Below are positions 3,435 through 64,000 of a stretch of DNA of 64,000 nucleotides, piece after piece. Position 1 is the stretch's first letter; every line of letters starts with the position of its first letter. This DNA comes from Squalus acanthias (taxonomy: Eukaryota), in NCBI GenBank assembly GCA_030390025.1, contig CM059431.1, forward strand, positions 120,778,001-120,842,000, written 5' to 3'. A model generated the notes under the pieces. The model made no database searches. It was not told the DNA's origin and saw only the letters and a list, made by a program, of their open reading frames with translations. Position numbers and translations under genes: made by a program.

Positions 3435-3487
3435 AAAAGCAGTCAGGGTAATTTTAACATTGAATGATAGTGTAAAATTGGCAAAAT

Positions 3488-27234: not shown

Positions 27235-27878
27235 ATAAAGATTAAAATGAAACAGAAACAGCAGGCTTATGACAATTGTAAGGTTCAGAATACAGTAGAG
27301 AACCATGATGACTATAGAACATACAGAGGAGACCTAAAAAGGGAATAAGAGGGGCAAAGAGAAAGTATGAGAATAGATTAGTGGCTAACATAAAAGGGAG
27401 CCAAAATTCTTTTTATAAACACCTAAATAGTAAAAGGGTAGTCAAAGGAAGGGTGGAGCCGATTAAGGACCAAAAAGGAAATCTTCTTGTGGAGACAGAG
27501 GGCATGATTGAGGTACTAAGGGGGCGAAATTCATTATAGCCCAGTAATGGACGCTAACTTCTGAAAAGTTTGAGATTTAGCGCCAGGCGCTAATGAATCT
27601 CGCTGCACACAAAATTCAGTGTCATCGCTCAAAGAAAGGATGGGAGCGCTGAATCAAGCGCTAATGACCGAGCTCAGTGGAGTTAGACTCAAAGCGCGAA
27701 GCAATTTCAGGTGCAGTCTAATCGCTAGTCATCATTGCCACAGGCTCTTTCCAGTTCTTAAAGGGGAGGTTCAATCATGCTGCAGAACCTCATTCTCAGC
27801 ATTGCTGGTTCTGCAGCTGTCTCAGCAAGAATCAGAAGGCCCAGGAGAAGGAACCGGACCACTGAAGGAGGTGTCATT

Positions 27879-29778
27879 ATGGCAGATCAACGGCCCAGGG
27901 AGAGAGCTCGCAGATTCTGTGATCAGGCATTGGAGGCATTGGTCTTCACTGTGGCGAGACGGAGGGCGGTGCTGTACCCGGCAAGTGGCAGGAGGCCCTC
28001 ACCGCAAGTCTTCCGCGCCATGTGGAGGGAGGTAGCCCAGCAGGTCTCGGGCAGCACTGTGGTCCCCAGGACCCACACACAGTGCAGGAAGAAATTTAAT
28101 GACCTCACTCAGGTGGTCAGGGTGAGTCAATGCCTCAACAAATGCTACATACCACCATCTGAACCACAGTCTGCACACACTGCCCAATGCACCACACCCC
28201 CAGCACTCACCCACCAACAATCTCTACCTACCAACACTCACACCCACATCTCACACATTGCACACAATGACAGCTATTCAACTATGGCAGGCACATCTCC
28301 CAAACACATTGCTCCACACTCACTCACACACTTTCCTCTCTCTTGCAGGCCGAGGTTGCTCACAACAGGAGGGAGCAGGAGCGCACAGGCGGGGGACAAA
28401 CCGACACCCAACCACTGTCTGATCTGGAGAATAGAGTGCTGCAAATCATTGGGCGACAGGTGGTGGGCGCGTGGCCACCTGTGACGTTGATCCCCTCGGG
28501 GACAACAACGGTACATTTATCCCTGCTCCTTCTTCTCACATCCCACTTCTCTCTCACCCCACAAGCCTTTCCCACTTTCCAGCTAATCTTGCTGTATGCA
28601 TGCCTTTCTCCCTTCCTGCCCCTCTCCCCTCACCTTAACCCGACTCTTGTGCCTTTATGTTTTCAGATAATGAGCAAGCACCTGAGCAGCCTGTCCCTGA
28701 GGGCACCATGGAGAGCGAGGCGGGAGAAGAGGAGGAGGAAGAACACACCACGTCACTGCATGTCTCACCCACAGGCACCAGCTCAGATACTGGCACTATG
28801 TGCTCTTTAGAGGCTCGTATAGTAGTGGGATATGCACAGGGTGAGGCACCTGGGAACGAGCGGGCTGCAGCAAGGTCAGGGGAAAGGGTAGCTCAGGACT
28901 CAGCTCCCCGGAGGGCGAGTTCGCATGCGTGTTCTGCTGCACAGGACTCAGATGAGGATCTCGATGGGGAGGCCTTTAGAAGAAGGGTGATGGGCATGCA
29001 CACGGAGATGATAGGTGCAATGGCAAGGGTGCCCGACAGCCTCTCGGCAATGGTAAGGAGTGTGGAGGAGTCCGCCTCCAACATTGCACAGAGCTCTGCG
29101 CACACCATGGAACCCATTATTTGCAGTCTGCAAAGGGTGGTGGACTCCCAAAGAGACTGAGGTGACACAGACCTCATGCCGAGTGTGATGGGCGAGGTCG
29201 CAGCTTCCATTGCAGCACAGGCGGAAGTGACGCAACGTCTTAGTGCTGTAATGCAGTCTATGCTTGGTGCCATCGATTCTCAAACTGCTCTCAAGCAGTC
29301 TCAGCTTGACGCTGCTTTGACTGCTGCCATCGTGGCTGGGTCAACCACCATCCACCGGGGCTTTCACAGTGTCGCATCAGGCCAGCAATCTGTGCTCCAG
29401 CAGATTGGTAGTGATGCTGAGGTGCTGCCCCAGGGCAGTGCCAGTGGGTCAGTGGAGCAGGAAGCTGCTGTCCTCTCTCAGGATGACAGCATTCCTGCTC
29501 CCACCACTGGCACTCCGCCATTGCCCTTGTCGCTGCCTGTCATCCAGCCAGCCCAGACTGCTGCCGCCCATGCTGAGGTGGTGCAGTCTACAACTAGGCC
29601 TTCCAGGCCCAGAGCTGGTCAAGGGTGTCCTGCAAGGCCATCTGAAGTCTCCCGCACGGACACTCAGCAGCCTTTCACCCGCCGTGCTGCAGCCACTGGG
29701 CCAACACCTCGTAGGAGCATGAGCGCAGGCAAAGGCACTGTAACAAGGGGCACAAAGGGATTGCACAAGGGTGAATAG
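27879..29778 (+). pseudogene. Harbinger Myb/SANT-like protein gene, exons ~27879-28121, 28349-28510, 28667-29778
   Basis: MADQRPRERARRFCDQALEALV..WREVAQQVS..PRTHTQCRKKFNDL; GTGAGT donor 28122, TTGCAG acceptor 28348, TTTCAG acceptor 28666; exon-2 frameshift and in-frame TGA at 29158. Confidence 0.85.
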
Positions 29779-29943
29779 CTAATATTGTTGTTGTAAATAT
29801 GTGTTCACTGATTATTGATACATTTATTAATTGGCTTTGGAATATTTTGTGGTTTCTCTCAATTCAGCTTTGCGCTGCGATATGGCCTGCGACAGGGATG
29901 GAATGATGGGGATGTGGTGAACAATGGGGATCTGGGGTTTAAT

Positions 29944-31058
29944 TTATTGGAACCGTAGTCTGATGAGGACCACCCTTCCAGAAGGCCAATTGAGTGGCTA
30001 CCTCCTCCCTCACTTCAGTTCCTCCTCCTCCTCCTGCTCATCTTCCTCTTCCTCTCCCTCTTCCTCCTCCTGAGGTGGTCCAGCAATCCCTGGTGGCAAG
30101 CGCTGGGCCCTCATGATGGCCAAGTTGTGGAGCATGCAGCAGACCACGACGAAATGGGACACCCGCTCCGGCGAGTACTGGAGGGCTTGAGCACCCCGAT
30201 GGTCTGCTCGATGATGTTCCTGGTGGCAGCATGGCTCTCATTATATGAGTGCTGAGCAGGAGGGCTGGGGTTGTGGAGGGGAGTCATGAGCCAGATGGAG
30301 AGCAGATAGCCCTTGTCTCCGACCAGCCAGCTATGAGCTTGCTGTGGCGGCTGGAAGAGTGCTGGCAAACCGGTCTGGCACAGGATGAAGGCATCGTGGC
30401 TGCTGCCAGGATAGCAGGCATTCACATTGAGGTCGCACACCAACTGCACATTAAGTGAATGGTAGTCTTTGCATTTACAGAAGACCTCAGGATTGTTATG
30501 CGGTGCCCACAAAGCCATGTGGGTGCAATCAATGGCGCCCTGCACCATGAGGAATCCCGCTATCCTGGCAAAACCACATGCGCGTTTGTCCTGCTTCTCT
30601 CTGGTGATGGGGAAGGAAATGTAGTCGGTTCTCCTACTGTAGAGAGCCTCTGTGACCTCCCGGATGCAGCAATGGACGGCGAACTGCGAGATGTTCGCTA
30701 TATCTCCTGTTACAGACTAGAAGGAACCGCTGGCAAAGAAATTGAGGGTGACGGTGACATTGCCTGCCACTGAGAGAGCCGTGGTCGACCTGATCTGAGG
30801 CTCGAGGTGTGGTTGCAGGAGGTGGCAGAGATCGGTGACCACATCCTTGCTGAAGCGGAGCCGTCTAATGCACTGCACCTCGCTTAATTGAAGGTAGGGG
30901 AAGTGCTCTCGGAATACCCTAGCGGGGTAAGGCCTCCTGCTGAGAGCCCTGATGGCTCTCCTCCTCCCTCTGGCCACATCTTGCAATCTTTCTCGCTGCC
31001 TCCGCTCTCTCCGCCGTGTATCCTAGAGGACGAGGTCGATTGCCAGTACAGCCCCCAT
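29944..31058 (-). pseudogene. Harbinger DDE transposase pseudogene
   Basis: ORFs 30717-30986 and 30111-30548: RLRFSK, NFFASGSF, VQGAIDCTHM, YHSLNVQLVCD, PGSSHD, GDKGY, HAATRNIIEQTIGVLK. Confidence 0.9.
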
Positions 31059-36187: not shown

Positions 36188-38831
36188 CAGCTAAACTTCA
36201 CCAGTCATTCTTTGATCACATATCCAACAGAAACACCGCACAGTGGAGGAGACAAACAGAAAATGAATGGCATATTTAATACCCGTTCCAACATTTATCT
36301 CTGGGGCTGCCAAAAGCAAAAGGAGCAGAAGCCAAATCTTATGCTATAAATAATAAGACTGCTGAGCAATACATGTAAGTTTATCTAGTTGCATGTTTCT
36401 TGGGATAATCTTGGCCTTTTGGGAGACCATGACAGGGATTGTTCAGACTTGCAGTTCATTATAATCTTTTAGCTTCAGGATTTAATGGCCTAGCTGGAAC
36501 ATAAACACTAAAATTGTAGGAAATTTAATAATTATAATAACATTACTTGGAGTGTTTAAATTAACCCATATCCTACCAAATATGTTTTTCCACAATGAAT
36601 GATTTCCATAGGGTGAAAAGTTTTGGCGCTAGGTAACTAAGGAGTAATTCTCAGATGTTAGTGAGTATTTTCAGTATGGAGCTCTTTAAGAACAAAAGAA
36701 AAATGCAGGGATTGGGCGGGGAAGACAAGAAATTCTATTTTGCTTTAAATGAGAAACAAAGGACCATATTGTAGGACACCACTAAAGCTGCAGACAATAA
36801 ATGGGAAGATCAGGTAAATGGGGAAGTAATGAATTCATGACACCAAGCTTAGGTTTTCAAAGCTTGAAGATTGTAGGAGGACAGAGTTAGTGGGAGGTAA
36901 GGAGTTCTGCATTTCTGGGGTACTGACTGGCTGCAACATTTAATAAATAGCGAACCTTCACACAAAATGTTGTTTAGTGGAGTGACTGCAACACTGACTA
37001 GAATGGAAAACAGCTTTTTTTAAACACAGAAAAATGTTATAAGGCACTATAGTTTCTCTTCAACATTTCTAATAAAATGGTATCCAGATGTAGAAAGTAT
37101 AAATAAGTGCTGTTATACTGTATTGGACTTTTTTAAAATTTAAGTCACAACATCCCTTCATTTCCTCACTGCTTAACTCTTAATTCTTATCTTTTCAACT
37201 AAGATAAAATTCTCAATGTTTAAAAGCAGGATACACCTGCTTCTTGTTAATGGACACAACTGTAAGTTCTTAAGAAGGAGTCGCTGTGAAGTGAAAGTCT
37301 CCAGCACAGACAGCGGCCACATGGCCCACATTTCCACTTCATCCAATCTCTTTGTACTATATTTATAAAATTCTTTGTGCTTGGTGTAATTACAAACAAA
37401 TTGTTCGGGAACAGCTGAACAGAGTTACTGAGTGAACTAAGACCATCAGCCCCAATGACGTTTTAAAAAATACATTCTACTGTTTGTTTGAAAATGATTA
37501 AATCAGTCACTGACTCTAATCAAATCATTTGGTATTAAGCAACGTGATGGACCATTATAAGTGATAGATATGAAACAACGTGAGCTTTTCTTTTGCTGCT
37601 GAAAACGTACATGTACACCTTTAAAGTATAAGAGTACAGCTTTGAGACATTGTTGCCTGGCATCTTTTTTTTCTCTCTTGCATATTTCCCCTAAAGCTGA
37701 TGATTTCTTGCTGGGGTATAGTTCTTCAGATGTTATTCGCCCTCTGGTGTCTTGCCCAGATGGCCATTATTTATGTAGAAGCCTTCACAGCTGCATGTAA
37801 GAAGACTTTTTAACTGGAGGAGTTTCACAGCCAAACTTGGTCTTCATGCAACGTCCATAAATTCACATTCCCAGTAGGAGTTTCTAGGCAATGGTCAGAT
37901 GCAATTCAGGCACCTCTACTGCCACCTGGCTAACCTTAGCTAACTCAACACAGACCAAGGATCAAACTTGGGACCATCTTAGCCTGTGCATTCAGTTACT
38001 CAATGTATAACCCTGCTAAACCATTAATGGAACCCAGAATATTGTTTACATTATTAAACAGTAGGCAGTTCTGAGTAATGTAAAAATTAACATAACAAAT
38101 GGTAATCTTTGATTTATTTATAATAAGGAAAACAATACCAAAATACAGCACAGTCCAAATGCTCCTGTCTACCCTTGTTTCTTTAAGACACCACTTCCTG
38201 TGGTTACTGTTTTCATGTCCTTCTCCTTACATTTCATTTTGGTTTAACGTATCTGTTTGTTTATACTTTAGTTTCCTGATTCATGCCCTTTTTTAATGTA
38301 ATATCTTCTCTCTTTCTAATAAACTCTACTTTACTAGTTCTCCAGGATTATTTTTAGCTCTTCAACTTTTATTTTTCTTTACTTTGTTTCTTTCTGCTCT
38401 TTCCTTTGATGTGCTCTTTGATCTTTCTGAGATTAGTAACATCTCCTAAACCTCTCTTGTGGTTTCCATGCTGTGCATAGATAGCAGGCTTCATTACATA
38501 AAATATAGGTTTCTTTACTTTTCCTTCTATTAGCAATCGACTTCTCTCCTATTTCTTTCTGAATTACAACTCACTTCTCTCTTTACTATGTATTAAGAAT
38601 TTCTTCAGTTGCTTTTTCTGGAGATTTACCCCGAGTGTTCTAAGCTTTTTTCTGTTTTCTTCTTTCTGAGCTTGCTGGCTTTCAGTTACCCTCACCTTCC
38701 TATTTTACTAACACACTAGTATTAAGGCGGATATTCTGTGAGTGCTTGCATCAATGTTCCTCTGTGGAACCTGCCTCTGAGCTCTCCAGCCATTTGTCCT
38801 GGGAAATATTTATCCCTGAACCAACATCACT

Positions 38832-39483
38832 AATGTGAGAAGTCGCACAACACCAGGTTATAGTCCAACAGCTTTATTTGAAATCACAAGCTTTCGGAGC
38901 GCTGCTCCTTCATCAGGTGAAGTGAAGAGATGCATATAGGCACAGCATGTATAGTCAGAGAACACTGCCAGATGATTACAGTTAATCTTTCTAACTGCCC
39001 TTTATCACACCTCGGCAGAGAGATAATCACGGCAATCAAAGGTGTGGATGGTGTCCAAACAGGTCAGTCAGGAAAACATTACATCAAAGACAATGAGGTG
39101 GGGTCACAAGGGGTCAATTGTGGCAGATGCTGGGGTCTGTGTGGAAAACAAAAAACAATTGACCCCTTGTGACCCCACCTCATTGTCTTTGATGTAATGT
39201 TTTCCTGACTGACCTGTTTGGACACCATCCACACCGTTGATTGCCGTGATTATCTCTCTGCCGAGGTGTGATAAAGGGCAGTTAGAAAGATTAACTGTAA
39301 TCATCTGGCAGTGTTCTCTGACTATATATGCTGTGCCTATATGCATCTCTTCACTTCACCTGACGAAGGAGCAGCGCTCCGAAAGCTTGTGATTTCAAAT
39401 AAAGCTGTTGGACTATAACCTGGTGTTGTGCGACTTCTCACATTTGTCCACCCCAGTCCAACACCGGCATCTCCACATCATGG
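38832..39483. mobile_element. Penelope-like element remnant: inverted pseudo-LTR pair plus 3' tail extension
   Basis: 290-bp arms 38832-39121 and 39155-39444 (about 3 mismatches), 33-bp spacer, ~40-bp tail, flanking direct repeat CAACATC(A/G)CTAA. Confidence 0.8.
39356..39392 (+). ncRNA. Minimal hammerhead-ribozyme-like motif (mirror copy on - at 38884-38920)
   Basis: TCAC-CTGACGA-AGGAGC(AGC)GCTCC-GAAA-GCTT-GTGA: core CUGANGA/GAAA, stems I and II, palindromic AAGCTT in place of stem III. Confidence 0.6.
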
Positions 39484-41859: not shown

Positions 41860-44712
41860 GGGCCTGAAATTCCAACAGTGACGTTGTGCTGCCAGAAGTG
41901 AGACCTCATGGGGTCATAGTACAGGGCCTGGCATAAATTGCGCAGTCTCTTGATAAATGTGACACTTCTTTGTTCATTACCCTCACAGTGCACGAGGATG
42001 GTACTCTGATCACGTTTTCCCATCCCCTGTCACCTGCTACCTGTCCCTGAATATAAGGAAGACACTGATGGAGGCGAAGAAGAAGAAGACACACTGTCAC
42101 TGCATCTGACACTCGCAGACACCAGCTCAGAAACTGGCAGTGCGTGGACTTTAGAGGGAAGTGCAGAGGTGGGATCTGCATGTGATGAGCCACTGGGCAC
42201 AAGTGGGCTGCTGCTAGGCCGGGGGAAAGGGCAGCTCGGGTGCCAGCTCCTCGGAAAGCGAGTTCGCGCTCGAGTTCTGCTCCACAGGACTCAGACGATA
42301 ACCTCAATGGGGCGGCCTTCAGAAGAAGAGTGATGGGCAAGCACACGGAAATGCGAGGTGCAATGGCAAGCATGCTAGAGAGCCTCTTGTCAGTGTCAAA
42401 AAGCATGGGGGAGTCCGGTTCTAACATTACACGGGGTTTTGCGCAGAGCTTGAGCCCATGATTTCCAGGATGGAAATGATGAGCAACTCCACGAGACACC
42501 TTGTGGACCCAAATATGCTGGTGGGTGTGATGGGCGATGTCACAACTTCCATTGCACCACAGGTGGAAGCGACCCAACATCTCAGTACTGCAGTGGAACC
42601 TCAGACTGCTGCCATCGTCATTGGGTTTACGAGTGTCGAAAGTAGATGGCAGGGTGTCGCAGCAGTCCAGCAATCTGTCCTCCAACAGATGATTAGGATT
42701 GCTGAGGCACCGGCTCTGTGGAGCAAGAACCTGCTGTCCTCTCTCAGGGTGATAGCATTCCTACGCCCACCACTGCCACTCTCCTTGCAGCTGCCTGCCC
42801 AGACTGCTGCCACCATTGCCAAGCTGCTCAAGGTCTTCCTCCAAGGCCATCTGAAGTCTCCCCCACGGAAACTCAGAAGCCTTCCACCAGCCATGCTGCA
42901 GCCACTGGGGGAGCACTTCGTAGGAGCACTAGAGCAGGAAAAGGCACCCAAACGACAGGCACTGTGGGATTGCACAAGGGTGATTAGTTGACGTTGTTCT
43001 TTTGATTTGAATTTGATAAATTTTGTTTGGAATGTGTGTATCTCTCACTTCAGCTTTGTGCCCAGGAGGATGCTGTGATGTTCCGTGACAGAGGGATGGT
43101 ATGATGGGGATCTGGGGTTTCATTCACTGGAATCGGAGTCTGATTTGCCTGCCACCTCCCTTCATCCTTGTCTTGAGGTGGAGCTGAACCCCCTGGTGGC
43201 AGGGGCTGCGCCTTCATGATGGTCAAATTTTGGAGCATGCAGCAGACCACCATGAAAAGCGAGTACTGGAGGGCTCATCCCAAGCGATCAAGGCAGCAGA
43301 ACCATTGCTTGAGCACCCCGATGGTCTGCTCGCTGAGGTTTATCGTGGCTTTCATTATATGAGGGCCGGCCATGAGTGGTATGTTGCAGAGGGGAGTCAT
43401 CAGCCAGGTGCAGAGTGGATAGCCCTTGTCACCTCAGGTTTGACATGGTGACTGGAAGATTGCTAGCACTCTGGACTGGCGCAGGATAGCGGGCATGTCA
43501 CCATCATGATGCGCTGGGTGTGGTCGCACAACATCTGTACATTAATTGAGTTGTAGCCTTTGCAGTTACAGGATGGGTATACGTGCCCGCAAAGCATCGT
43601 GTGCGCAGTTGATGGTGCCCTGCACCTTGAGAAGGTGGTGGTGGTGAACTGCTGCTGTCTTTGTAGCAGTTTGTTACAACTGAGTGACTTGCTAGGCCAT
43701 TTCAGAGGGCAGTTAAGAGTCAACCATGTTACTGTGGGTCTGAAGTCACATATAGGCCAGACCAGGTAAGGACGGCAGATTTCCTTCCCTAAAGGACATT
43801 AGTGAACCAGATGGGTTTTTACAACAATCTGGTAGTTTCCTGGTCACCATTACTGACACTAACTTTTTATTCCAGCTTTATTTAATTGAATTTTAATTCC
43901 CCAGCTGCCGTGGTGGGATTTGAACACGCATCACCAGATTGTTAGTCCAGGCCTCTGGATTACTAGTCCAGTAAATAACCACTATGCTACCGTGCCTCTG
44001 TGACCACCTCATTGGCGGAGCCTCCTAATACACTGCTCCTGTCTTAGGTGCAGGTAGGAGAAGTGCTCCCTGCAGACCCTATGTGGGTAGGGCCTCCTCC
44101 TGTTCCTCCTCCTCCTCCCTCTGTGAGCATCTTGTCCTCTTCTTCGCTGCCTCCACTCCATCTCCCTATCATACTCGAGCACAAGGGGGACTGCAAGTAG
44201 AGCCCTCATGACTGTGAGCAAGTGGTGTGAGCAGAACCCCTTAAATGAGAAGCAAGGCCTTCTCCACTTGCAGCAACACTCCCTGTTTCCTTAGCAACTT
44301 TAAACAACTTTAGGAAGCTCCAAACAGTAGCACAAAAGTAGACAGAGCCAGTAGAACTGAAAAAGCAAGTCAGCTGCATGTTGTTAATGATCCCTTTAAA
44401 TAACGCTGCTGGGGGCTCCTTCCTGCTGCTGAATGCATGGTCAGCTGGTTGTGATTAGGAGAGGGCGGTAAATGGAGCAGTGACGTCCAAAAATGGCAGA
44501 TTGTGCGTCAAATCAATGTTGCACACTCATTGATGTCATGATATGCCTAATCTAAATATCTGGAGAGAGCACTGGCAACAGCAGTGCTACCGACCTCCGC
44601 AAAATGGCGGCTACCGTGAGACCCTCCGGATGCGAGCAGAAGCGAGTCGGCCGCCATTTTTTCATCAAAACCGGCCTTAACAGCTGGCGCTAAACCCCCG
44701 AGTTTCGTGGCC
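41860..44712. mobile_element. Decayed PIF/Harbinger transposon
   Basis: Left end TAA|GGGCCTGAAATTCC; Myb-gene exon-3 remnant on + (42030-42990, ends LHKGD); transposase remnant on - (44209-43124); right TIR weak. Confidence 0.75.
43626..43998 (-). mobile_element. tRNA-headed SINE with tail of the second CR1 family, inserted in a transposase
   Basis: Minus strand begins GAGGCACGGTAGCATAGTGG..GTTCAAATCCC; ends CACCACCTTCTCAAGG; sister copy at 51385-51720. Confidence 0.75.
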
Positions 44713-52907: not shown

Positions 52908-53925
52908 TGTAAGGGGTTTTGTGTCGTGCTTGTATCGCAGACGGTGCTGGTACGGGGTTAGGCCTTTGTTGCCTAATACTATTGCTTGCTCTGGTCTCTG
53001 TCCAGCCTTGTTGCAATAAGCACCTGTGAGTGGTTCGACCCACTCGCCCTTACGGTTCTAACACTGGACTCAGGTGCGAGAGCAGTAATGCAGAGAAAAA
53101 CTCAAATAGACTCGGCTGAATAGTACGAAATGGAAATCTTTATTGCATAGCGTCCAAGATCATGAAGTACATGTCATAGGCGCAAATTAACGAGAGTACA
53201 AGTATACATACATTCATAAAGCTTGGTCTATGGTAATGAAGAACACACGGCACATCGTAAAAAGGGGAACACATTATACTTTATCCTTAATAAAACCACC
53301 CTCCCTTATCAATACCTACACTACATCTAGATTTGTAGGATCGGGAAACATGCTCACCACTCGTGATACTGTAGAATTCGCAATATATCGCGATTTGATT
53401 AATGAGGAGAAAACACAAGTTTCGTTCAAACAGCTTTTATTTCAGCAGAATGCTGGCAGGTTTAAATTGGACACAAGCAGCCTGTAAAATGGCCACCGCA
53501 CCTCGTGACAGAACATTCTAGACTTTTCAACAGGCAGACAAGATGGCGTTCCAATAAACATTTGTGCAAGATCGATTAAGATGCAGCACAGTGAAGATAA
53601 TACACGAGACATTATGGGTTTGCAGTATAAACATAGATACTGGAATCGGTCTCCCAGGTACAAAGGAAAGCCATTGTACCGAGTAATCAAGGGCCCATCC
53701 AAAGGACATTAATATGTAAAATCCCAACGACTCTACGATGAGAGAGCCGTTAGCAGGTAGTTATACAGGACACTTGGAAGCCCCAAACCCCTCCAGGGAG
53801 AACACCGACCGATTTAACAATGGGAGAAATATTAACAGGTACTCAGACATTTACGAGTAGCCCCGAAACCCATTAAGAACGGAGATCACCCATACAAGAC
53901 ATTTGGGCGCCAAACCCTAAACAAA

Positions 53926-53999
53926 AGAATGGACATTATAGTTGGGCGGGAAACGGAAGATTTTTGCACTATAATTGCAGGCTCCAAACCGTCCATTCT
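53926..53999. promoter_or_regulatory. Candidate bidirectional core promoter at LTR centre
   Basis: GTCCATTCT on - (53926-34) and + (53991-99); ATTATAGT / ACTATAAT inverted pair (53935-42, 53968-75) around GGCGGGAAA (E2F-like) and CGGAAG (ETS-like). Confidence 0.5.
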
Positions 54000-54207
54000 C
54001 TCTCTTGCTCTTGCATTCGCTCGCTTGCTCCTGTGTTTTATCCGGTCGATTCGTAACCTCGTGGCTGCTCCTGTGTACTCGTAGTTGGGCTTCTGCTTGC
54101 CCGTTGCCTCTTCTGAAAAGACTGTTGAACTTTCTGATCCGTTCAGATCTACCTCGTGTCGCGTAACGAAGACCTATGTTGGTAACTGGCAGCGGAACCA
54201 AAGGCCC

Positions 54208-54236
54208 GAGATGAGATGAGATGAGATGAGATGAGA
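54208..54236. repeat. (GAGAT)n microsatellite within LTR
   Basis: Five-plus GAGAT units. Confidence 0.9.
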
Positions 54237-54782
54237 GGAGAAGAGAGGAAGACCATATCCATCGCCACGGTCAGTAAATCCCGACCGCGCCTGTAGGTCG
54301 ATCAGCCAAGTTTTCCTCGCCAGGAAGATTTCTATTTTGAACTTTTAACAAAACATATTGCATCGACGATAACGGGACTGTGTCTAAGGAGACTGGTACG
54401 TGAAACCAACCAACAGAGATCTTCATCACAGCAGACGGTCCAGCCTACTAGCCGGAGCAGCAGAAGCAAGTAAACAAGTGGGACCAGGAGATCTCCTGAC
54501 CGACACGTGGGTGCTGCGGTGAAAAACATCCGATCAGCTATTCGGAATTTCTCCGAGTTATCACGAGTGGTGAGCATGAGTCTCGAGATCCTACGAAGCT
54601 AGTTTAGGATAGATATTGATAGGGGAGGGTTTAAGGATTAAGGATATTTGTAATGTGTGCCCCTATTTACTTTGTGCCGTTCGTTCCTCGTTTCCCTAAG
54701 ATCGACTATATAACTGTTTGTAAGATTGTACTGTCATTAATCTGTGCTTATGACATGTATTTCATAATTTTAAGTATCATGC

Positions 54783-54788
54783 AATAAA
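54783..54788 (+). terminator. LTR polyadenylation signal (mirror copy on - at 53139-53144)
   Basis: AATAAA ~250 bp before LTR end, conserved in both arms and in the solo LTR. Confidence 0.7.
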
Positions 54789-55043
54789 GATTTTCCATTT
54801 CGTACCTTTCAAACCAAGTCTACATGAGTTTTATCTCCATTACTGCTCTCGCATCTAAGTCCAGTGTCTAGAACCGTAAGGGAGAGTGATTCGAACCACT
54901 CACAGGTGTGTCTAGTGTTCCCAGACTGGCTGGAGACCAGAACAGGCAACCAGGCCTAGACCCGCACTGACATACAGGCTGCACAGAGCCGCGTGAATCT
55001 CACAGGCTGCGAGACACGCAGGGTCAGGAATCCCTTACAGAAA

Positions 55044-56854
55044 ATGGCGACCGCGGCAGGACACTGGCAGCGAGAGGGTAGTGTGTTAGATTTTGGAATG
55101 ACTGTACGAAATGTTATGCAGGAAAAGATAGCGGATTATGTGTTTGGAAAGGTTAATCTAACCAAGAAATGGATAAGTGAATTGTTAGCGGATAAGAGCC
55201 CACTAGAGGCAGCTGAAAGGTGGACAGATAGTAAAGAACATAGAAAGACACTTGAGAAAGCAGTCTGGCTTATGTGCTACAAAAGGCAGGTTCAGATTTC
55301 AAACCAGACCATTACAGCGCTAGTAGCTCGAATCAGTCATTTAGAGGGAGAAATGGAGGAGAAGGTTTCTGGAGGGGAGGTGCTCATTAAGAATTTAAAT
55401 GAGTTACACCAGGAAAGCCAGGAAGTCTCCAGTCACCTTAAAACAAGGATAGAGTATCTCGAGTGCCAGGTCACTGAGGCAAAATTGAATGAGAGCAGGT
55501 TAAAGGAAAGATGTAACCGCCAAGCTGCCCAGATAAGAACTCAAGAAGAGAGCTTAATGGGGGTTAGGTCGGCATATAAGTTGGCCCTTGAGGATAAGTT
55601 TCAGGGAGCCGACCATAGCGCCTGCCAAAGGGAGATAGAGAACCTCAAAAAGGCCGTGAACATTGCGAACGGCATGGTGTGCCTTATCAATCCGTCGGCG
55701 CACCAGCCGCTAGTAAATGAGAGATTTAGAAAATCCCCACCAAGTAAAGCAGAAGAAGTAGTAGCCACTGCGCCCTCCGCGCCACCCAGCTATTCAGAAA
55801 CCTGGGTTAGGGAGGAAGCAATGGAAGAAACAAAAGAGCCCATTGAAAAGGAAGTAGAAAAGGGATCGCTGTATCCAGTAACGGGTATTAAAAGGGGCCC
55901 AAGCAGAAACGGTGGGAAGAACCGGGGGATCTCCTCGGACAGCTGGTGTTGCCTCACAGTTCACATCAGCTGAGAGCTATGATAAATCACGTACGGAAGC
56001 TGACCGAGATAGACGACCCTTCCGTACATTTCAGAGAAGTTGAGCAAGCCGCAGCCATTAACGGCTGCGATGATGGGGAGACAGCAAAAATGCTGCTGTT
56101 CTCATTAGACAGCTCGGTCCTTCAGTGTCTCTCAGGCGAGAGCAAGAGGGGAAACAAGAGTTATGAGGAATTAAAGAATGAGGTCCTAGAAGTGTTGGGG
56201 GCGAACGACGAAGGTCCGTTTGCTAGAGTGGGACAGACAGTGCAGATGGAGGGAGAACCCCCGAAGGTTTTTGCCGACAGGCTGTGGCCAGTATATGAGC
56301 GCAGCTGTCTAGGTGCGCCCGAGCGCGAAGATGTGGAAGGCGCCGCTTTAACTCATTGGCTTAGGTGCATAATAGCCAACAGTTTACCAGCCGTTAGAGA
56401 GCAGGCAAAAGCATGGTTTGATCCCAATGACCTCAACCTTACGGAAGAGTCGGTCTTGAATCGACTCACGTTAGGTTATCGTAATATAAGGGGTATGACG
56501 ACACGTCCCTTTAAGGGAAGAGTACATGAGGTACGACCCGCAGCCCCGTATCAAAGAGAGTGGCATCAGGAGGGTAATCGCGCCCCACAGGCAAGTAATG
56601 CTTGTTACGGGTGTGGGAAGACAGGGCACTGGCGCAAGCATTGCAGGAACCCTTGGAAGGATTCCAAGGATAAAAATCCCGCGGTCCGAGCCCAGGCGCC
56701 TGTCCCGGCTAAGGAAGCCAAGACACCCACCCCTCCCGACGACCTCGAAGCAGTGTTAGGAGCCATGCGCAAGCTGGTCTTGAATGCGCGTGGACAGGTG
56801 GCGGTCGCAACCGGCCCCGTAGGTGCCGCAGGACCGTCTAATAATGCCCCATGA
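55044..56854 (+). CDS. gag: Gag (split by one -1 frameshift near 55915)
   Basis: ORFs 54993-55973 (coiled-coil-like, PSAPPSY) and 55946-56854 (CA-like, CYGCGKTGHWRKHC knuckle at 56603-56644); true start may be ATG 55044, 55098 or 55116. Confidence 0.85.
55045..55062 (+). promoter_or_regulatory. Primer binding site, tRNA-Arg(UCG)
   Basis: TGGCGACCGCGGCAGGAC is the reverse complement of GTCCTGCCGCGGTCGCCA, which I recall as the 3' 18 nt of vertebrate tRNA-Arg-TCG. Confidence 0.85.
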
Positions 56855-59800
56855 CTAGAACCAGCACAGCCCGTCTACCTGTGTCCGCTTAGCTATGATG
56901 CGTGGAGGCGACCTGTGGTGGAGATGGAGGTAGAGAAACAGAAGGGCAGTTATTTGTTGGACACGGGAGCTTCTTGCACCATAATCCATACAGATGACCC
57001 TTTTGACTCGCCGCTATCTACCAAGGTCCCATTCACGTTGGCAGGGTTCACAGGAAAAGAACAGGCTGGCACGTTTTCCCTTCCGCTATCCATTCGTTTA
57101 GGAACACTTCGCCTTAAGTGGAAGTGTATACTGATGGCATGGCAAAAGGGGGGTGGAAGAGGTATTCTCGGGTCCGATCTCCTAGCGGGACACGGGATCC
57201 TCGTGGACCTCAGAAATCACTGTCTCTGGGGGGCTAAAGGTGAAAAAGGCGAGGTAATAGTGATTCCGGGGGAGGAAGAAACAGGGGTCCTGTGTACCGT
57301 ACAGCCATCCGGAGGCTACGACCTCAGGCTTATGGTCGCAGATGTCCCAACGGACATGCAAACGTACGTGTCAGATAATATGCACGCGTTTGCAACCCAC
57401 AAGCACGATTGTGGGAGAGTGGTCGGGTTTGAGGTCAGCGTAGATGGGGACCCCATGACCCGACCCCAAAAGCAGTATAACTTCCCCAAAGAAGCAGAAC
57501 CCGATATGGAGACAGCAATGTCTTCCTTGGTGCAGCAGGGCGTGTTAAGGCCGATAGCCACACACGTGAACTCCCCATTATGGCCGGTTAGGAAGCCGGA
57601 TGATTCGTGGAGAGCCACGGTGGACTACAGAGTCCTTAACAGTAACATTCCCGCCTGCGCGCCCACAGTAGCAGCAGTTGCTGACCTAATAGGGAGCATC
57701 CCAGCGTCCGCGACCACGTTCACGGTGCTGGATATCTCGAACGGTTTTTGGTCCATCCCGCTGCGGCGAGAGGACCAGTACAAGTTTGCCTTTACTTTCA
57801 AAGGGCAACAGTACACGTGGAACTGTCTGCCACAGGGTTTCCACAATAGCCCCAGTATTTTTCATCAGTGTATGGCAGGAAGTTTAAGGGAGTTTAGTCA
57901 GCCCAATCAGATAGTACAGTATGTGGATGATTTGCTCCTATTTACGGACTCAAGGGAGGAGCACGGACCACTGCTGGGCGAGTTATTGGAGCTGTTAGCG
58001 AGAAAGGGTTTTAAAATAAACCCTAAGAAAGCACGTATCGGTCAGCGGGAAGTAAAATTCCTGGGACTGACCATACGCGCTGGGGAAAGAGCCATAGACA
58101 AAGCAAGGAGGGAGTCGGTGCAAGAATTACCGATTCCCAACAACGTAAGGGGTGTGAGGTCCTTCTTGGGACTGACCGGTTACTGCAGGGATTTTATCGA
58201 AGATTATGCGGCCACAGCGGCGCCGCTCCTCCGACTCCTCCATAAGGGGGTGGAGTGGTTTTGGGACGAGGGCTGCCAAGCAGCCTTCGAGAAGTTAAAA
58301 AGGGATCTGCAGACCGCGCCAGCCTTAGGGGCCATAGATGGGGGGAAGGAGTTTTTCCTGGAGGTAGCTGCCAGCGGAGACAGCTTAAGCGCCGTGCTGC
58401 TCCAAGAGCGTCACGGCAAGCTGAGGCCGGTTGTCTATTCATCCAGGGTATTAACGGATGTGGAGAGAAGTTTCTCCAATTGCGAAAGGCACCTTTTAGC
58501 CACGCATTGGGCTGTGAAAAGATCAGCGATCTTCACAGGGCTCTCTCCCATCACTCTCCTCACACATCACACACCAACTAAGATGCTTCTGGATGGGAGG
58601 ATTAAAGACGGGACCGTAAGCAGCGCACGCATTGCGCGTTGGACCCTTCTTCTCTCCCAGTTGGATCTTAGAGTAAAAGGTCTTTGCGAGCCCAGGCTTG
58701 CGGCCAATTTGGTATACCCCGGTACAGCCCACCGGTGTTCGGTGGAAGGGGTGTGGGACGTCAACATAGGTTTACGGGCCGGGATACATCCCACTGGGCG
58801 CGAGATTTATGTTGATGGGTCTAGCACAGTGTCTGCTGGCGAGCGACTCACAGGGTGTGGAGTTTATGACCCTGCGGCAGACCTTGCCCTGGCGATCAAG
58901 CTCCCTAGCACCATGAGCGCGCAGCAGGCTGAGCTGTCTGCCGTGGTGTACGTTGTGACCCACCCAGACATTTTCCCAACCCCATACACGATTTGCTCGG
59001 ACAGTATGTTCACCTGCAATTCGTGTACGGAATACCTGGCCATTTGGTCCCGCCGCGGATACACCTCCGCGGACGGGCGACCTTTAACGGTGAAGCCCTT
59101 GCTGGAAAAGATCTTAGCAGCAGCAGTAGGGGAGGAAGGAGAGATTTTCATCCATAAGGTGAAAGCTCACTCCTCCACAGAGCCCCGTGGGGAGGGCAAC
59201 CGGCAGGCGGATGCGCTAGCCAGGGAGGGTGCCCGCGACGGCACTTTCTGGAACCCCTACAGGACCGGACCCATAGCAGCGGTCCGAGGCGGGGACGGGA
59301 ATACCGGGAACACCAGGGTAGCATTGCCCCTAGACCTCAAAACCGTCCAAGCCCAGGATCCCGCCCTAAAAGCAGTCCTAAAAACGATTGCTGAGGGGAG
59401 GCAGGTAGAAGGTCCGTACAGTACGGCAACCCTCTCAGTTAAGGAAGGCATGCTGTTCCGCGAGGAGCAGTGGGTTGTGCCGCAGCAGCACAGGAGGGAA
59501 TTCCTCCAGTTGGCTCACGAGGGACCAGGGGCAGGGCACCCCGGGCCCGAGGTTACCTGGCAACGGGTAGAGCAAGCGGGATGGTGGCCAGGGCTCAGGG
59601 AACAAGTCCGCGAGTTCTGTGCAAACTGTCTTGTGTGCGCCGCAAACAACCCAGACCCCCAGAAAAGGAAGGTGCCCATGGGACACGTAAGAAGGGTAGA
59701 GGGACCATGGCAGTCGATACAGATCGACTATATAGGACCCCTGCCCACCACCCAGGGAGGTTATAAGTACTGCCTCGTCCTGGTGGATGTGTTTTCCAAG

Positions 59801-61378
59801 TGGGTGGAAGCCTTCCCTTGTCGAACAGCTACAGCACTGGGTACAGCAAAAATCTTGGTCCGGGAAGTGTTCTCGCGGTGGGGACTTCCCCGTTTTGTGG
59901 AGTCAGACCAAGGGAGTCATTTCACCGGCCAGGTGATGCAGAACACCCTCATGCTTTTGGGCATTGAAGGGAAGTGGCACGTAGCACACAATCCCCAGTC
60001 ATCCGGGATTGTTGAACGTATGAACCGGACCCTGAAGGAGAAATTGAGGAAAGAGACTAGGAACTCGCCCCAAAAATGGGCGGAAGTTCTGCCTTTAGTC
60101 CTCATGGGGGTCCGGGCCAGTCAGTCAAAAAGTACGGGGTACTCCCCGCACGAGGTAATGACTGGGAGGCTCATGCGAACCCCCACCCATGTGCTAGCGC
60201 CGGTGCTCACTGAGGGTCAGCTCCAAGAGATAAGCAGGGACAAGTTCGCCCAGACTCTCTTGGAGCGCCTGAAGCAAGTTTATGAGCAGGCGGCTGGGAA
60301 CATGGGAAGGCAGCATCAGGGCAATCGCTTGTTGCTGGAACCCCGCAAAACGCGGGAGTGGGAAGTAGGAGACCAGGTCATGGTCAGAAACTACGCCAGA
60401 GTAGGGAGTCTGGAACCACTGTATATGGGACCCTACAACATTGTAGACAAGGCGAGTCCCATGGTTTACGCCGTAAAAGTACCTCGGCGCACTAAGTGGT
60501 TCCACATAAACCAATGCAAACTGTACCAGCCGGGTGCGCAGGGGAAAACTACAGGGGTAAATCCCGCCAATGGGAAAGCACAGCCCCAGGTAGGACCACA
60601 AGGCACACAGGCAGGCATAGCAGCTTGCATCAGGGGAAGGGACATCCCGGACGATCATGCAGCGTTTTTCTGGAGTTGGGGGTTAGATGAGGAAGAACCC
60701 AGGGTACCCTGGTCAGATGAGGATAGTGCAGATGAGCATAGTGATGATGACGGGTGGTTCCTGAGGAACGGTCTGGAGGGAATGGGGCCTATAGGTAGAG
60801 ACCCACACAGAGTGGACACACAAGCTGCAGGTCCCGAGGACAGGAGGGAGGAGCTAGAGGAGGCAGGGCCAGCCGCTATAGGAGCACAGAGAGTACCGAT
60901 GTGGCTCCCAGAGATGTGGCCGCCCGCTTTGAACGTCCAGTCCTCAGGGGAGGCAGAGATCACGAGTGAAGGGCCGCCTGCTGGGCCGAGCAGGGCGGAG
61001 CCACGAACTGCCAGCCCCGAGGTTAGGGAGGCGGAGTCAGCGGAGGCGGAGCCGGCGACTGTGATGGAACCCCAGGTCATCCCGTTGGAGGTCTCGGAAC
61101 CCGGTCCGTCCGTCACGGAACCCCCGCCCATAGCAACTCCCCGTAGGTCAAGTAGAGAACCCCAGCCCAGGAGGATGTGGTCATGTCCCCAGACTGCCCC
61201 AAGGCGTAGACTTCAGGTTAAGATAACCCGGGTACAGACCGGCCACATCGCAGCAGTAACAGGCTGCGGCAGATCAGAGGGAAGGGTCAGCGCAGCAACA
61301 GGCTGCGGCAGATCAGAGGGAAGGGTCAGTGCCCTCCCACCGTCGGGAAGAGCTCGCAGCAGCCTTCTCAGAATTTAA
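56855..61378 (+). CDS. pol: Pro-Pol: protease, RT, tether, RNase H, integrase with GPY/F module, C-terminal extension
   Basis: LLDTGA (56960), LPQGFHNSP, YVDD (57920), YVDGS..SAQQAEL..SDS..GNRQAD, H-H-C-C, IDYIG/SDQG/VERMNRTLK, MGPY; open and in frame with gag from 56855. Confidence 0.97.
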   Translation, partial: LEPAQPVYLCPLSYDAWRRPVVEMEVEKQKGSYLLDTGASCTIIHTDDPFDSPLSTKVPFTLAGFTGKEQAGTFSLPLSIRLGTLRLKWKCILMAWQKGGGRGILGSDLLAGHGILVDLRNHCLWGAKGEKGEVIVIPGEEETGVLCTVQPSGGYDLRLMVADVPTDMQTYVSDNMHAFATHKHDCGRVVGFEVSVDGDPMTRPQKQYNFPKEAEPDMETAMSSLVQQGVLRPIATHVNSPLWPVRKPDDSWRATVDYRVLNSNIPACAPTVAAVADLIGSIPASATTFTVLDISNGFWSIPLRREDQYKFAFTFKGQQYTWNCLPQGFHNSPSIFHQCMAGSLREFSQPNQIVQYVDDLLLFTDSREEHGPLLGELLELLARKGFKINPKKARIGQREVKFLGLTIRAGERAIDKARRESVQELPIPNNVRGVRSFLGLTGYCRDFIEDYAATAAPLLRLLHKGVEWFWDEGCQAAFEKLKRDLQTAPALGAIDGGKEFFLEVAASGDSLSAVLLQERHGKLRPVVYSSRVLTDVERSFSNCERHLLATHWAVKRSAIFTGLSPITLLTHHTPTKMLLDGRIKDGTVSSARIARWTLLLSQLDLRVKGLCEPRLAANLVYPGTAHRCSVEGVWDVNIGLRAGIHPTGREIYVDGSSTVSAGERLTGCGVYDPAADLALAIKLPSTMSAQQAELSAVVYVVTHPDIFPTPYTICSDSMFTCNSCTEYLAIWSRRGYTSADGRPLTVKPLLEKILAAAVGEEGEIFIHKVKAHSSTEPRGEGNRQADALAREGARDGTFWNPYRTGPIAAVRGGDGNTGNTRVALPLDLKTVQAQDPALKAVLKTIAEGRQVEGPYSTATLSVKEGMLFREEQWVVPQQHRREFLQLAHEGPGAGHPGPEVTWQRVEQAGWWPGLREQVREFCANCLVCAANNPDPQKRKVPMGHVRRVEGPWQSIQIDYIGPLPTTQGGYKYCLVLVDVFSKWVEAFPCRTATALGTAKILVREVFSRWGLPRFVESDQGSHFTGQVMQNTLMLLGIEGKWHVAHNPQSSGIVERMNRTLKEKLRKETRNSPQKWAEVLPLVLMGVRASQSKSTGYSPHEVMTGRLMRTPTHVLAPVLTEGQLQEISRDKFAQTLLERLKQVYEQAAGNMGRQHQGNRLLLEPRKTREWEVGDQVMVRNYARVGSLEPLYMGPYNIVDKASPMVYAVKVPRRTKWFHINQCKLYQPGAQGKTTGVNPANGKAQPQVGPQGTQAGIAACIRGRDIPDDHAAFFWSWGLDEEEPRVPWSDEDSADEHSDDDGWFLRNGLEGMGPIGRDPHRVDTQAAGPEDRREELEEAGPAAIGAQRVPMWLPEMWPPALNVQSSGEAEITSEGPPAGPSRAEPRTASPEVREAESAEAEPATVMEPQVIPLEVSEPGPSVTEPPPIATPRRSSREPQPRRMWSCPQTAPRRRLQVKITRVQTGHIAAVTGCGRSEGRVSAATGCGRSEGRVSALPPSGRARSSLLRI

Positions 61379-61690
61379 AGGGGCCGCCCTGAGAACGGGC
61401 GGCACTGTAAAGTTATAGTTCTAAGTTTTAAGTTTATAAGTAACAAGGTTAAGTTTTAAGTTTATAGTTCAAGGTTAAGGTTGTAATTTTAATAAGGCTA
61501 AGTTTGTAGTGTTTTTAACAGAAAACGATAAATGATGGGAGTTTTAAGGTTAGGTTTAGAGGAAGTTTATTCAGCAAACGTTGAAGCTTACGTGAGGCGA
61601 GGTCAGGGGACCCGCTCACCCTTCACAAGAGCCAGAGACTCTTGCGAGGCTGGCTACCTCATTCTATCTGATCACAGGAACCAAGGAAGG

Positions 61691-64000
61691 ATGGAACGAA
61701 TTCTAGTATTGCTCGTGGCAATCGGATGTGGATTGGCCTATCGAGGCCACACCAAGGATGTCGTGGTGTTTGGATGTTCCGGGGACACGGCCCCCATCGC
61801 GGTGGACGGGACCGGAAGACGGAAGGCAGAGGGGACCAGCACCTATTTCCACAAGGGAAGGTGGCCAGGATGGCTGGGAACGAACTCAACGGAGTATTCC
61901 AGCACATCGGGGTTTGCCTACCAAGAGACTTCTTTACTGTGCCCCAAAGTAAGGATCATCGCACCCAGGATCAGCGTCACCGTCGGCAAACGGATTTGTT
62001 TGACTTGTAGTGGGAAGGTCCCATTGAGCCGATGGTGGTGGCTGCGAAAGCTGAGCAAAACTATGAGAAACTCTTCGGTCGAGTGGGAACGACTGGGTAA
62101 TAATACCCATCGGACAATTACGGGGACAGACGGACAAGTGAAAGTCTGTTGGGACAAATGGTGGGAACCGGATGAGGGGATTTATGTATGTATGTGGGGG
62201 TCAAAGTACGTTTGCCCCAAAGGCATCTCCATATTTTTTATTAATCAATGGCAGGATAACGGACAGGGGATGAGGTGGGATGCGAGCACCAGGGGGTGCG
62301 GAGCCCCATTCTCCCCGATCCCAGTAAATGCCACTGAACTCATTATGCGCCCACGCAAAGCCCCGCCCACGATTCCGGTGGTTCTAGCTGAGGAAGAAGG
62401 GTGCCCTAAAACTAGTAAGGGACCCGGGAATGGTTTGGTACTGGTCCCCACAGACCAGATACTCTTTCAGGGGGTACATTACGCGGTGGCCTCGGTGATT
62501 TTAAATCTCACTGAGGTACGGTTACCAGAGTGGTGCCCCAAAAAGACGGAACAGTTGTATCAGGTCCTGTTGACCAAGATGTTCAGACAATTTTACGAGT
62601 TTGATTTTGCAGAAATTGATAAGACAAGTTTGTACACCGCACCGCAGGAAGTTTTGGATCAAGTAGGGAGGCAAAGAAGGGGTTTGGTGAACGATGCGTT
62701 CACTGCTTTTAACACAGGGACATCTGTGGTCAACGCTCTAGACAGTGTGGAGCTGCAGACCCAGATTAATGGTTTAAAAACACAGTTAAAAGACATTCTA
62801 ACAGATGAGAATAAAGTGGTAGGGTCAGGTCTACACGAGGACCAAGCCATGACTCTCCATTTAAAGGAAATTATAGCAGAGCTGGAGAAACATGCGCGTA
62901 CGGTAAATGCCCTGATCAGGGAAGATCGGAATGCATCCGATCAAGCTGCGCAGAACGAGGTGTGCGTGCTTTACGGGGCGTGGTTACTGGGCGAGGGCCG
63001 CAGTAATTTGGAGGATTTAAAACAAGGTTTGGTTCCGTCCTGGATAAGTAACAAACACCTACGGGCGCTCCACCCTTTTCAGAACGCATTAAGTCCGTGC
63101 CAGCTCAGGCTAGCTTCAGAAGCTTACCCAGTCCCCGTGGACTGCGGACGATCAAACCATACTATTATGGGAATAGTATTACGCATGCCGGTTTTGGGCG
63201 ACACAGCAAAGCCCGCCCCGGTATATCGGGTAGAGAACATTGGTGTCATTCAGGGGGGAGCCCACGTTCGTTATGCAGCGGTTCCACCTTACGTCATCCG
63301 CTGGGAGCAAACGATGACAGGTACAGATCTCTCTGGTTGTCGTGGCAGGGGAGCACACATAATACTGTGCCCCCAGCACTTGAATGCCTTTTTAACACCA
63401 CAGTGCGGGTTCAGAACGGCTGGCGCCAAGTCCATGAATTGCACCATGGAGGCAATGGCACAAGATCATGTGCCTCCGCAGGTAGCATACATCGGGGGTG
63501 GAACATATTGTGTTACCACTGCAGCGCAACACTACCAGCATGGAAACCGTAGCCGGTGTCCGGTGAGTGACAGCAGTTTCTGTTTTAAACCCAGGGCTGA
63601 AGTTCAAGTAGCACAACAGCGAATTATCCCAATCCCTGAACCATCCACTGTTCATCTCACAGTAAAAGAGAATTTCACCGACTTGCAGCGATTTGTCGCG
63701 CATTTTGGATACCTCATTCCCCCTCTCCCTGAACACTTAACCAAACTTCTGAAAGCCGTCGCGGTATCACAGAAACATTTTTATACATTAGAGCAGAAAA
63801 CTGTCGAAATAGGAACAGACATTCTGGACATAGTAGTTCCACCGTGGTGGAATCTGTTCACTAATATTGAAGTGCCTTCATGGATCAGAATAGCCTCCCA
63901 CATTTTAGTCGTATGTCAAGTGTTTATCGTAGTGTACCTATTGGTCATACATTGTAAAAGAGACAAACGCCTCACCAAGCATGAAAACACGGGAGAGTGG
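61691..64000 (+). CDS. env: Env, F-type class I fusion glycoprotein (at least 770 aa, runs off window)
   Basis: Own translation, no stop: signal peptide MERILVLLVAIGCGLA, NxS/T sites, furin RQRR (62669-80), fusion peptide GLVNDAFTAFNTGTSVVNAL, heptad region, Cys-rich region, TM ILVVCQVFIVVYLLVIHC (63902-55), basic tail. Confidence 0.93.
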   Translation, partial: MERILVLLVAIGCGLAYRGHTKDVVVFGCSGDTAPIAVDGTGRRKAEGTSTYFHKGRWPGWLGTNSTEYSSTSGFAYQETSLLCPKVRIIAPRISVTVGKRICLTCSGKVPLSRWWWLRKLSKTMRNSSVEWERLGNNTHRTITGTDGQVKVCWDKWWEPDEGIYVCMWGSKYVCPKGISIFFINQWQDNGQGMRWDASTRGCGAPFSPIPVNATELIMRPRKAPPTIPVVLAEEEGCPKTSKGPGNGLVLVPTDQILFQGVHYAVASVILNLTEVRLPEWCPKKTEQLYQVLLTKMFRQFYEFDFAEIDKTSLYTAPQEVLDQVGRQRRGLVNDAFTAFNTGTSVVNALDSVELQTQINGLKTQLKDILTDENKVVGSGLHEDQAMTLHLKEIIAELEKHARTVNALIREDRNASDQAAQNEVCVLYGAWLLGEGRSNLEDLKQGLVPSWISNKHLRALHPFQNALSPCQLRLASEAYPVPVDCGRSNHTIMGIVLRMPVLGDTAKPAPVYRVENIGVIQGGAHVRYAAVPPYVIRWEQTMTGTDLSGCRGRGAHIILCPQHLNAFLTPQCGFRTAGAKSMNCTMEAMAQDHVPPQVAYIGGGTYCVTTAAQHYQHGNRSRCPVSDSSFCFKPRAEVQVAQQRIIPIPEPSTVHLTVKENFTDLQRFVAHFGYLIPPLPEHLTKLLKAVAVSQKHFYTLEQKTVEIGTDILDIVVPPWWNLFTNIEVPSWIRIASHILVVCQVFIVVYLLVIHCKRDKRLTKHENTGEW

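Follow-up and report, generated by a model that had tools for sequence, protein, structure and literature searches.

A UGA-CUAG gag-pol junction with a long predicted stem-loop in an endogenous retrovirus of Squalus acanthias, and its probable translation by readthrough

The subject of this work is the gag-pol junction of an endogenous retrovirus (ERV) in 64,000 nucleotides of Squalus acanthias DNA (GenBank assembly GCA_030390025.1, contig CM059431.1, positions 120,778,001 to 120,842,000 of the forward strand). This whole stretch is referred to as the window, positions are counted from its first letter, and all gag, pol and env features given below lie on the + strand. Stop codon readthrough has been demonstrated experimentally in gammaretroviruses (UAG-GGA), alphaviruses (UGA-CGG and UGA-CUA), coltivirus and triatovirus, and among retroviruses the experimental cases are confined to gammaretroviruses, where UAG is combined with a pseudoknot (PMC13517186). 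The nsP3/nsP4 junction of alphaviruses of Beier-Grimm type II, i.e., Sindbis, o'nyong-nyong (ONNV) and chikungunya viruses, shares with the element described here the context UGA-CUA, in ONNV UGA-CUAG, as well as an extended stem-loop, which in these viruses begins at +9 to +16 and spans 126-177 nt (PMC13517186). Readthrough sets the dose of polymerase there (PMC13517186, PMC3159437). By itself UGACUAG gives at least about 1.3% readthrough (PMC13517186), and a 3' stem-loop placed behind UGA-CUA or UGA-CGG after a spacer of 8-12 nt makes readthrough up to 10-fold higher in alphaviruses (PMC3159437).

Among retroviruses, Moloney murine leukaemia virus (MoMLV) as well as walleye dermal sarcoma virus (WDSV) resemble the element in having gag and pro-pol in one frame with a single stop separating the zinc knuckle from the DTG motif (PMC13517186). 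They differ from it in the stop, UAG-G, and in the 50-nt pseudoknot of MoMLV, whereas the element has UGA-CUAG, a long hairpin and a reverse transcriptase (RT) outside their clade. Snakehead retrovirus (SnRV), of clade Huo and class III, agrees with the element in RT motifs and also uses readthrough, but its junction is UAG-GGC (PMC13517186). SnRV-like ERVs make up clade Huo (PMC6001957) and are present in elephant shark as CmiERV lineage I (PMC4422223). UGA itself occurs at the junctions of SSSV (salmon swim bladder sarcoma virus; UGAAGA), the zebrafish endogenous retrovirus (ZFERV, UGACGA) and a Rhinella marina ERV (UGAAGU; PMC13517186), as well as between gag and pol of XtERV-S (PMC8278194), in all of which readthrough is assumed. 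Unlike in the element, the hexamer is never UGACUA in SSSV, ZFERV and the Rhinella marina ERV, and the accessible sections of PMC13517186 give no stimulatory structure for these three; nor do those sections of the 2026 review list UGA-CUA for any retrovirus. The literature searched, in which subscription papers, Repbase and closed preprint supplements were thinly covered, gave no retroviral UGA-CUA(G) with a long stem-loop behind it. Terms for readthrough had no occurrence in PMC9040795, PMC5512871, PMC5210030, PMC10435555 and PMC6001957, and PMC9447858 gave no result for this lineage. UGA at a retroviral gag-pol junction is thus already known, and the new part is the CUA(G) context together with the long stem-loop. 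The original prediction, in which the junction was pointed out as a leaky stop, had called UGA readthrough an unusual strategy for a retrovirus; this holds for the context with its stem-loop and not for UGA as such. The background it gave is in agreement with the sources: UGA-CUA is used by alphaviruses and UAG-G by MoMLV and WDSV, i.e., UAG readthrough in gamma- and epsilonretroviruses (PMC13517186), and AQP4, LDHB and MDH1 are users of UGA-CUAG (10.64898/2026.07.14.738498).

The letters at 56849-56858 read CCA TGA CTA G. The gag frame covers 55892-56854, comprising 320 codons, and is closed by TGA at 56852-54, while the pol frame at 56855-61378 continues in register with it for 1507 codons without a stop, according to the list of open reading frames (ORFs). 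Pol starts as LEPAQPVYLCPLSYDAWRRPVVEM...LLDTGA directly behind the gag TGA, and contains protease, RT, tether, RNase H and integrase, followed by a long acidic and proline-rich tail. Both the gag end and the open frame running into the protease are as described in the original prediction. The 3' piece of gag (55892..56854) holds the capsid region and a single CCHC zinc knuckle at ~56600-56647 (residues 237-252; a weak PF00098 match, E 0.045). It overlaps in another frame the 5' piece at 54960..55973, which is given from stop to stop and comprises the coiled-coil-rich N-terminal half, similar by eye to the N-terminal half of the relatives P0122 and P0123. The gag of the window copy is therefore broken by a frameshift between 55892 and 55973, as the two overlapping frames indicate, a break which had escaped the original prediction. 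Since this copy is not intact, a nonsense mutation at the junction is a real risk and a check of conservation is needed. All four sequence runs compared (see below) differ in length from the window within 55892-55973, and the break looks particular to the window copy or its assembly. The seven letters TGACTAG (56852..56858), a UGA with CUAG in the leaky-stop context of type II, are not rarer than chance in the window as a whole (9 occurrences, 7.96 expected), so that their weight rests on the position at the gag stop, where the chance of CTAG behind a given TGA is about 1/256 by arithmetic with equal base frequencies.

Protein searches gave Gag relatives at 52-54% (P0122), 56-57% (P0123, from skate) and 44% identity (P0124), and the only named ones among them are skate and catshark proteins. 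The Gag C-terminus lies 12-13 residues past an AxG motif in seven of nine relatives of the close group which were examined at this end, and 12 residues past it in the Gag of the window. The seven agreeing proteins (P0122, P0123, P0208, P0209, P0124, P0210 and P0211) fall into three clusters, the representatives of which are 44-57% identical. The other two, P0207 and P0125, end early at other places, and in two distant catshark Gag proteins (25% identity) the C-terminal end is not alignable. At the nucleotide level, at least half of the words of 56000-58000 are present in 20 of the 24 runs listed, which represent 9 studies and six organisms, and variants were compared in four of these 24, one from each of four organisms. 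The best-supported 40 of 274 variant rows hold changes at -8, -6, -2, +15 and +39, but none in 56852-58. In depth matching, one contig (X10 record 7) covers 56816-56973 with 3 differences and another (X18 record 21) covers 56847-56995 with 2 differences, all of them outside TGACTAG; the differences of the X11 contigs spanning the junction could be placed only in part. As judged from these comparisons, the gag stop is inherited and is not damage.

That Gag and Pol were once a single open frame, which in a decaying copy was closed by a nonsense mutation to TGA, is accordingly a highly improbable explanation. The gag frameshift shows that the window copy is damaged elsewhere, and fused Gag-Pol is annotated in 10 of the 24 published consensus sequences of lokiretroviruses, the sister group of all retroviruses, six others of which are without gag (PMC7947760). 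Yet the Gag end position is shared by seven of nine relatives, TGACTAG is kept in two contigs from other organisms, and no further stop interrupts pol over its 1507 codons. A search for longer forms of Gag (561-2000 aa) gave two proteins, both of them Gag only, which is weak as a sign of absence. The original prediction had named conservation of the motif as the check to be made and a sense codon in other copies as the finding that would overturn it; the shared Gag ends and the two contigs speak for conservation. Several points weigh against an inherited leaky stop. Protein relatives locate the end of Gag without revealing which stop codon or context is used, the X18 contig starts merely 5 bases 5' of the stop, and a more distant coelacanth relative, P0005, is annotated as fused Gag-Pol without a stop, although as a gene model. 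Because only the best 40 of 274 variant rows were compared, a change of the motif in some copies of the four runs is possible. Apart from this, three of the four runs (X10, X11 and X18) contain contigs which match the element up to 32 nt beyond the stop and, at 56886, continue into related but foreign sequence. They are likely to represent a deleted, gag-only family which has kept the stop and is without pol and hairpin. No GT donor is present at 56886 in the window sequence, and the loose-end motif of this position has no occurrence in the window.

The stretch between the stop and the first in-frame ATG was found to be informative on how Pol is made. The protease N-terminal motif PL..D..xRP.V is located at 56885..56920, and the ATG follows at 56924..56926, 12 codons 5' of the catalytic Asp (56960). 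In the alignment of relatives this motif, in the form PL..D..GRP.V, stands upstream of the ATG position in P0005, P0137, P0141 and P0142 and partly in P0144 and P0009, i.e., five to six relatives with identities of about 30% retain it, and the Pfam match to the retroviral protease, RVP, starts at Pol residue 17, also upstream of the Met. Since the motif is conserved 5' of the first ATG, the stretch from stop to ATG should be translated, and a protease begun at 56924 would be without its first strands. This favours one Gag-Pol chain over a separate start of Pol. The alternative, that Pol is made separately from the ATG at 56924, either through splicing of its message, as foamy viruses do, or through re-initiation, and that CUAG is there by chance, is in our opinion unlikely. 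It has in its favour, and this counts against readthrough, that the ATG is in frame 69 nt behind the stop and in a good Kozak context, with G at -3 and +4; its Met is kept in the closest relative, P0001, and foamy viruses do have their own pol start (PMC8278194). Against it stand the loss of the conserved first strands, the absence of this Met from the six more distant of the seven rows reaching that column, and the location of the ATG inside a predicted stem. Nor was any splice acceptor (pyrimidine tract plus YAG, by a simple pattern) found in 56401-57000; together with the protease motif this disfavours expression of pol from a spliced mRNA, which had been foreseen as the other way to overturn the original prediction. 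Foamy-type expression was also considered in its own right and rejected, as foamy pol is in another frame than gag (PMC8278194) whereas here both share one frame.

Behind the stop, with U of UGA as +1, an unbranched stem-loop is predicted from +7 to +225 (56858..57076), comprising 219 nt and 82 pairs at -93 kcal/mol. The helices +7..+10 and +13..+25 form the base of this rod, the main stem starting at +13, and the mean pair probabilities are at least 0.9 for the helices from +13 and 0.76-0.94 for the basal one. The energy of -93.0 kcal/mol compares with -65.7 ± 4.3 kcal/mol in shuffled sequences (z -6.4) and was reached by none of 500 shuffles; 82 unbranched pairs were equalled by none of 300. 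A second fold calculation gave z -5.1 with none of 200 shuffles, and the opposite strand gave z -2.5. None of the 13 listed variants inside the hairpin breaks a pair. A fold of the 150 nt downstream of the stop had been asked for at the outset; when no more than the first 60-150 nt are folded, the structure is weak (z +0.9 to -1.9), and it is the longer stretch that gives the rod. This weakness belongs to the points that weigh against a function of the hairpin. In addition, its ends were picked after the fold had been viewed, and the grid of 98 windows which was scanned included the chosen window. It ranks first of the 98 (z -5.95), yet an RT window which was not chosen reaches -5.85, so that the junction is not alone in being strongly structured. 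Of the 13 variants, nine (A>G, C>T) are unable to break any pair, leaving p 0.015 on four informative ones, and two-sided compensatory changes were not seen among the listed variants of the four runs. Compared with alphaviruses, where a conserved stem of 10-12 pairs closes a looser loop, the predicted rod of the gag-pol element is of a different build.

There are thus two ways to read the hairpin, provided that readthrough takes place. Help to readthrough is the reading we lean towards, with some reserve, on the predicted fold. The other, less probable but still a serious candidate, is that UGA-CUAG alone drives readthrough and the hairpin contributes nothing to it, serving instead packaging, export or protection from nonsense-mediated decay, or being a by-product of a structured genome. 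Other pol windows do fold nearly as strongly, a second long rod is present in env, and a downstream structure is only conditionally required for UGACUA (PMC13517186). Opposed to this are the onset at +7 to +13, which is the spacing of known stimulators (PMC13517186, PMC3159437), and a metagenome locus of lokiretrovirus type, L001, which likewise folds into a hairpin beginning at about +12 (z -3.2 to -3.6, none of 200 shuffles). Some selenocysteine sites, too, combine UGA with a 3' stem-loop close by (PMC3159437). Decoding of this UGA as selenocysteine has, however, a vanishingly small probability in our view, as no Rfam family of that kind was matched at E up to 1 in 53000-64000, a region which stops short of the element's 3' end outside the window. 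In the same region Rfam gave nothing at gathering level and three weak, unrelated matches at E up to 1.

Of the features of type II readthrough, the junction has UGA followed by CUA, as in the definition by UGA and CUA/CGG (PMC13517186), a downstream ORF in the same frame whose conservation extends as far as the stop, a stop and context conserved as given above, and a predicted 3' stem-loop with basal helices at +7..+10 and +13..+25, the class being defined by a start ~8-12 nt behind the stop. As far as can be told from sequence, it resembles the alphavirus type in every testable feature. Gag-Pol is therefore very probably made by readthrough of UGA-CUAG, a reading which builds on the common frame, the inherited stop, the start of the protease and the predicted stem-loop, and which upholds the original prediction against both findings it had named as fatal. 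Most ribosomes on the unspliced RNA would terminate at UGA and release Gag, whereas a minor fraction, presumably a few per cent, would decode UGA by a near-cognate tRNA and continue into Gag-Pol; Arg, Cys or Trp, the usual residues, may be expected at this position. CUAG behind the stop would weaken termination. As in alphaviruses, the ribosome is most likely slowed by the long stem-loop, which begins 7-13 nt into the junction, and readthrough made more frequent by it.

The nearest Pol protein is 84% identical, followed by gene models of frog and coelacanth named 'NYNRIN-like' at about 40%, which are 50-53% identical in RT. An RT tree was made from 32 rows chosen out of 122, and a quicker one from 58 rows. 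Two Loki-type rows were sister to a clade (100/99) containing the element, and the RT of the element was outside a class I-like clade (96/95) of nine rows, the class I status of which was assigned by Pfam content and names. In the trees it is thus positioned between Loki and class I rows. The order gag-pro-pol-env, the tether with a second RNase H and the RT within the retrovirus clade (100/99) are features of Retroviridae, and the solved structures most related to Pol are the murine leukaemia virus type p80 RT and foamy protease-RT. By eye, on published rows in the supplement of PMC7947760, about 114 of 263 RT positions are identical to SnRV (~43%, with shared motifs) and about 83 of 260 to simian foamy virus (~32%). 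As 41-44% is also reached by P0011, P0014, P0015 and P0017, the likeness to SnRV is to be taken as a lead. The element is most likely an endogenous retrovirus of the SnRV-like group (clade Huo, class III). It stands apart from the gamma- and epsilonretroviruses, its RT being outside the class I clade and its junction not UAG-G. Identity with lokiretroviruses was dropped after the trees, where the two are separate at 100/99, although the approximately unbiased test does not reject their union (p 0.12). No relatives of the element were found in the viral contig collection, and of 78 loci from a metagenome scan the one examined in full, L001, is of Loki type and not a close relative.

Lokiretroviruses share with the element the dual RNase H and, where the gag stop is defined in the consensus set of PMC7947760, TGA-CTA. 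They differ in RT, which is 34-36% identical and placed in the sister clade, and in env: PF00523 had no match in the env of the element at E up to 0.1, while the env of L001, used as control, matches at 1.2e-5, and comparison with Env of the PF00523 type gave a mere faint pairwise likeness (E 0.007). None were reported in 6 cartilaginous-fish genomes in PMC7947760. Among the 24 consensus sequences published there, TGA-CTA stands in all seven with a defined gag stop, followed by G in Ofa, Cne, Pyo and Sau and by A in Bsp, Dcl and Lro; Tfu has TGN-CTA-A. By eye, six of the junctions are in frame with the annotated pol, while the published Bsp and Tfu slip frame further on, and behind the gag stop of Ofa, Pyo, Sau and Bsp there seems to be a hairpin whose four-base loop is similar. 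In L001, TGA-CTA-A and the protease share one frame in the region 2598-2680. A rough control was provided by those metagenome loci, 16 out of 78, which had a protease-plus-RT frame and a readable upstream stop: TGA-CTA was found only in L001. In the text and supplement of PMC7947760 (300 of 318 pages) there is no mention of readthrough, a stop codon or frameshift, and the published lokiretrovirus pol genes are begun at a downstream TTG, CTG or ATG and not at the junction. We consider it an evenly balanced proposal that the Gag:Pol ratio is governed by an alphavirus-type cassette, UGA-CUA and a stem-loop starting at about +12, in two deep lineages, SnRV-like retroviruses of cartilaginous fish and many lokiretroviruses. 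If true, this cassette would have arisen two or more times, or else be an ancient mode of Pol expression predating UAG readthrough and frameshifting, and the 82-pair rod would be an unusually long stimulator. A retrovirus with the same UGA-CUAG as vertebrate host readthrough genes would represent a third design for the Gag:Pol ratio. The junction is a short RNA element and easy to test. It also matters for annotation, where such elements are recorded as separate gag and pol or discarded as copies with a premature stop.

Some other features of the element and the window were recorded. Behind the integrase, Pol carries an acidic and proline-rich tail (60530-61378) of about 280 residues, in which a short stretch near 61255-61330 is duplicated in tandem. 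The env frame at 61532..64000 is open to the end of the window and has an RQRR cleavage-like site, a C-terminal hydrophobic stretch and, in its N-terminal part at 61950-62190, a weak Ig-like domain (Ig_3, E 0.093, below the cut-off); by eye, an Ig-like piece is likewise present at the end of the frog relative P0004. Prediction of the env structure from the single sequence did not succeed (pLDDT 35.5), and Atlas returned one chordate cluster at 0.84 for env, a lead only. The second long unbranched hairpin, with 71 pairs at 62380-62630 within env, is outside the 12 best z-scores and could be an export element. No 3' long terminal repeat (LTR) was found inside the window. Just upstream of gag there is an LTR-like stretch with AATAAA, present as inverted copies at 52982-53368 and 54559-54949, 77% alike over 395 nt. 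An 18-mer starting with TGG at 55044-55062, overlapping an ATG, resembles a primer-binding site, and the relatives P0123 and P0124 are annotated with a MAT.. start peptide similar to that at this ATG. No tRNA genes were found in the window. Decayed reverse transcriptase frames of the long interspersed nuclear element (LINE) type were noticed by eye at 1309-10855 and 16488-17279, in several copies and both orientations. Harbinger-like pieces, with Myb/SANT-like and DDE nuclease-like frames seen by eye, occupy 27762-30716 and 42193-44214, repeated about 13 kb apart. The window further contains a near-perfect inverted repeat at 38829-39447, with 293-nt arms, 99% complementary and separated by 33 nt, and a tandem array with a 31-nt unit at 7153-7431.

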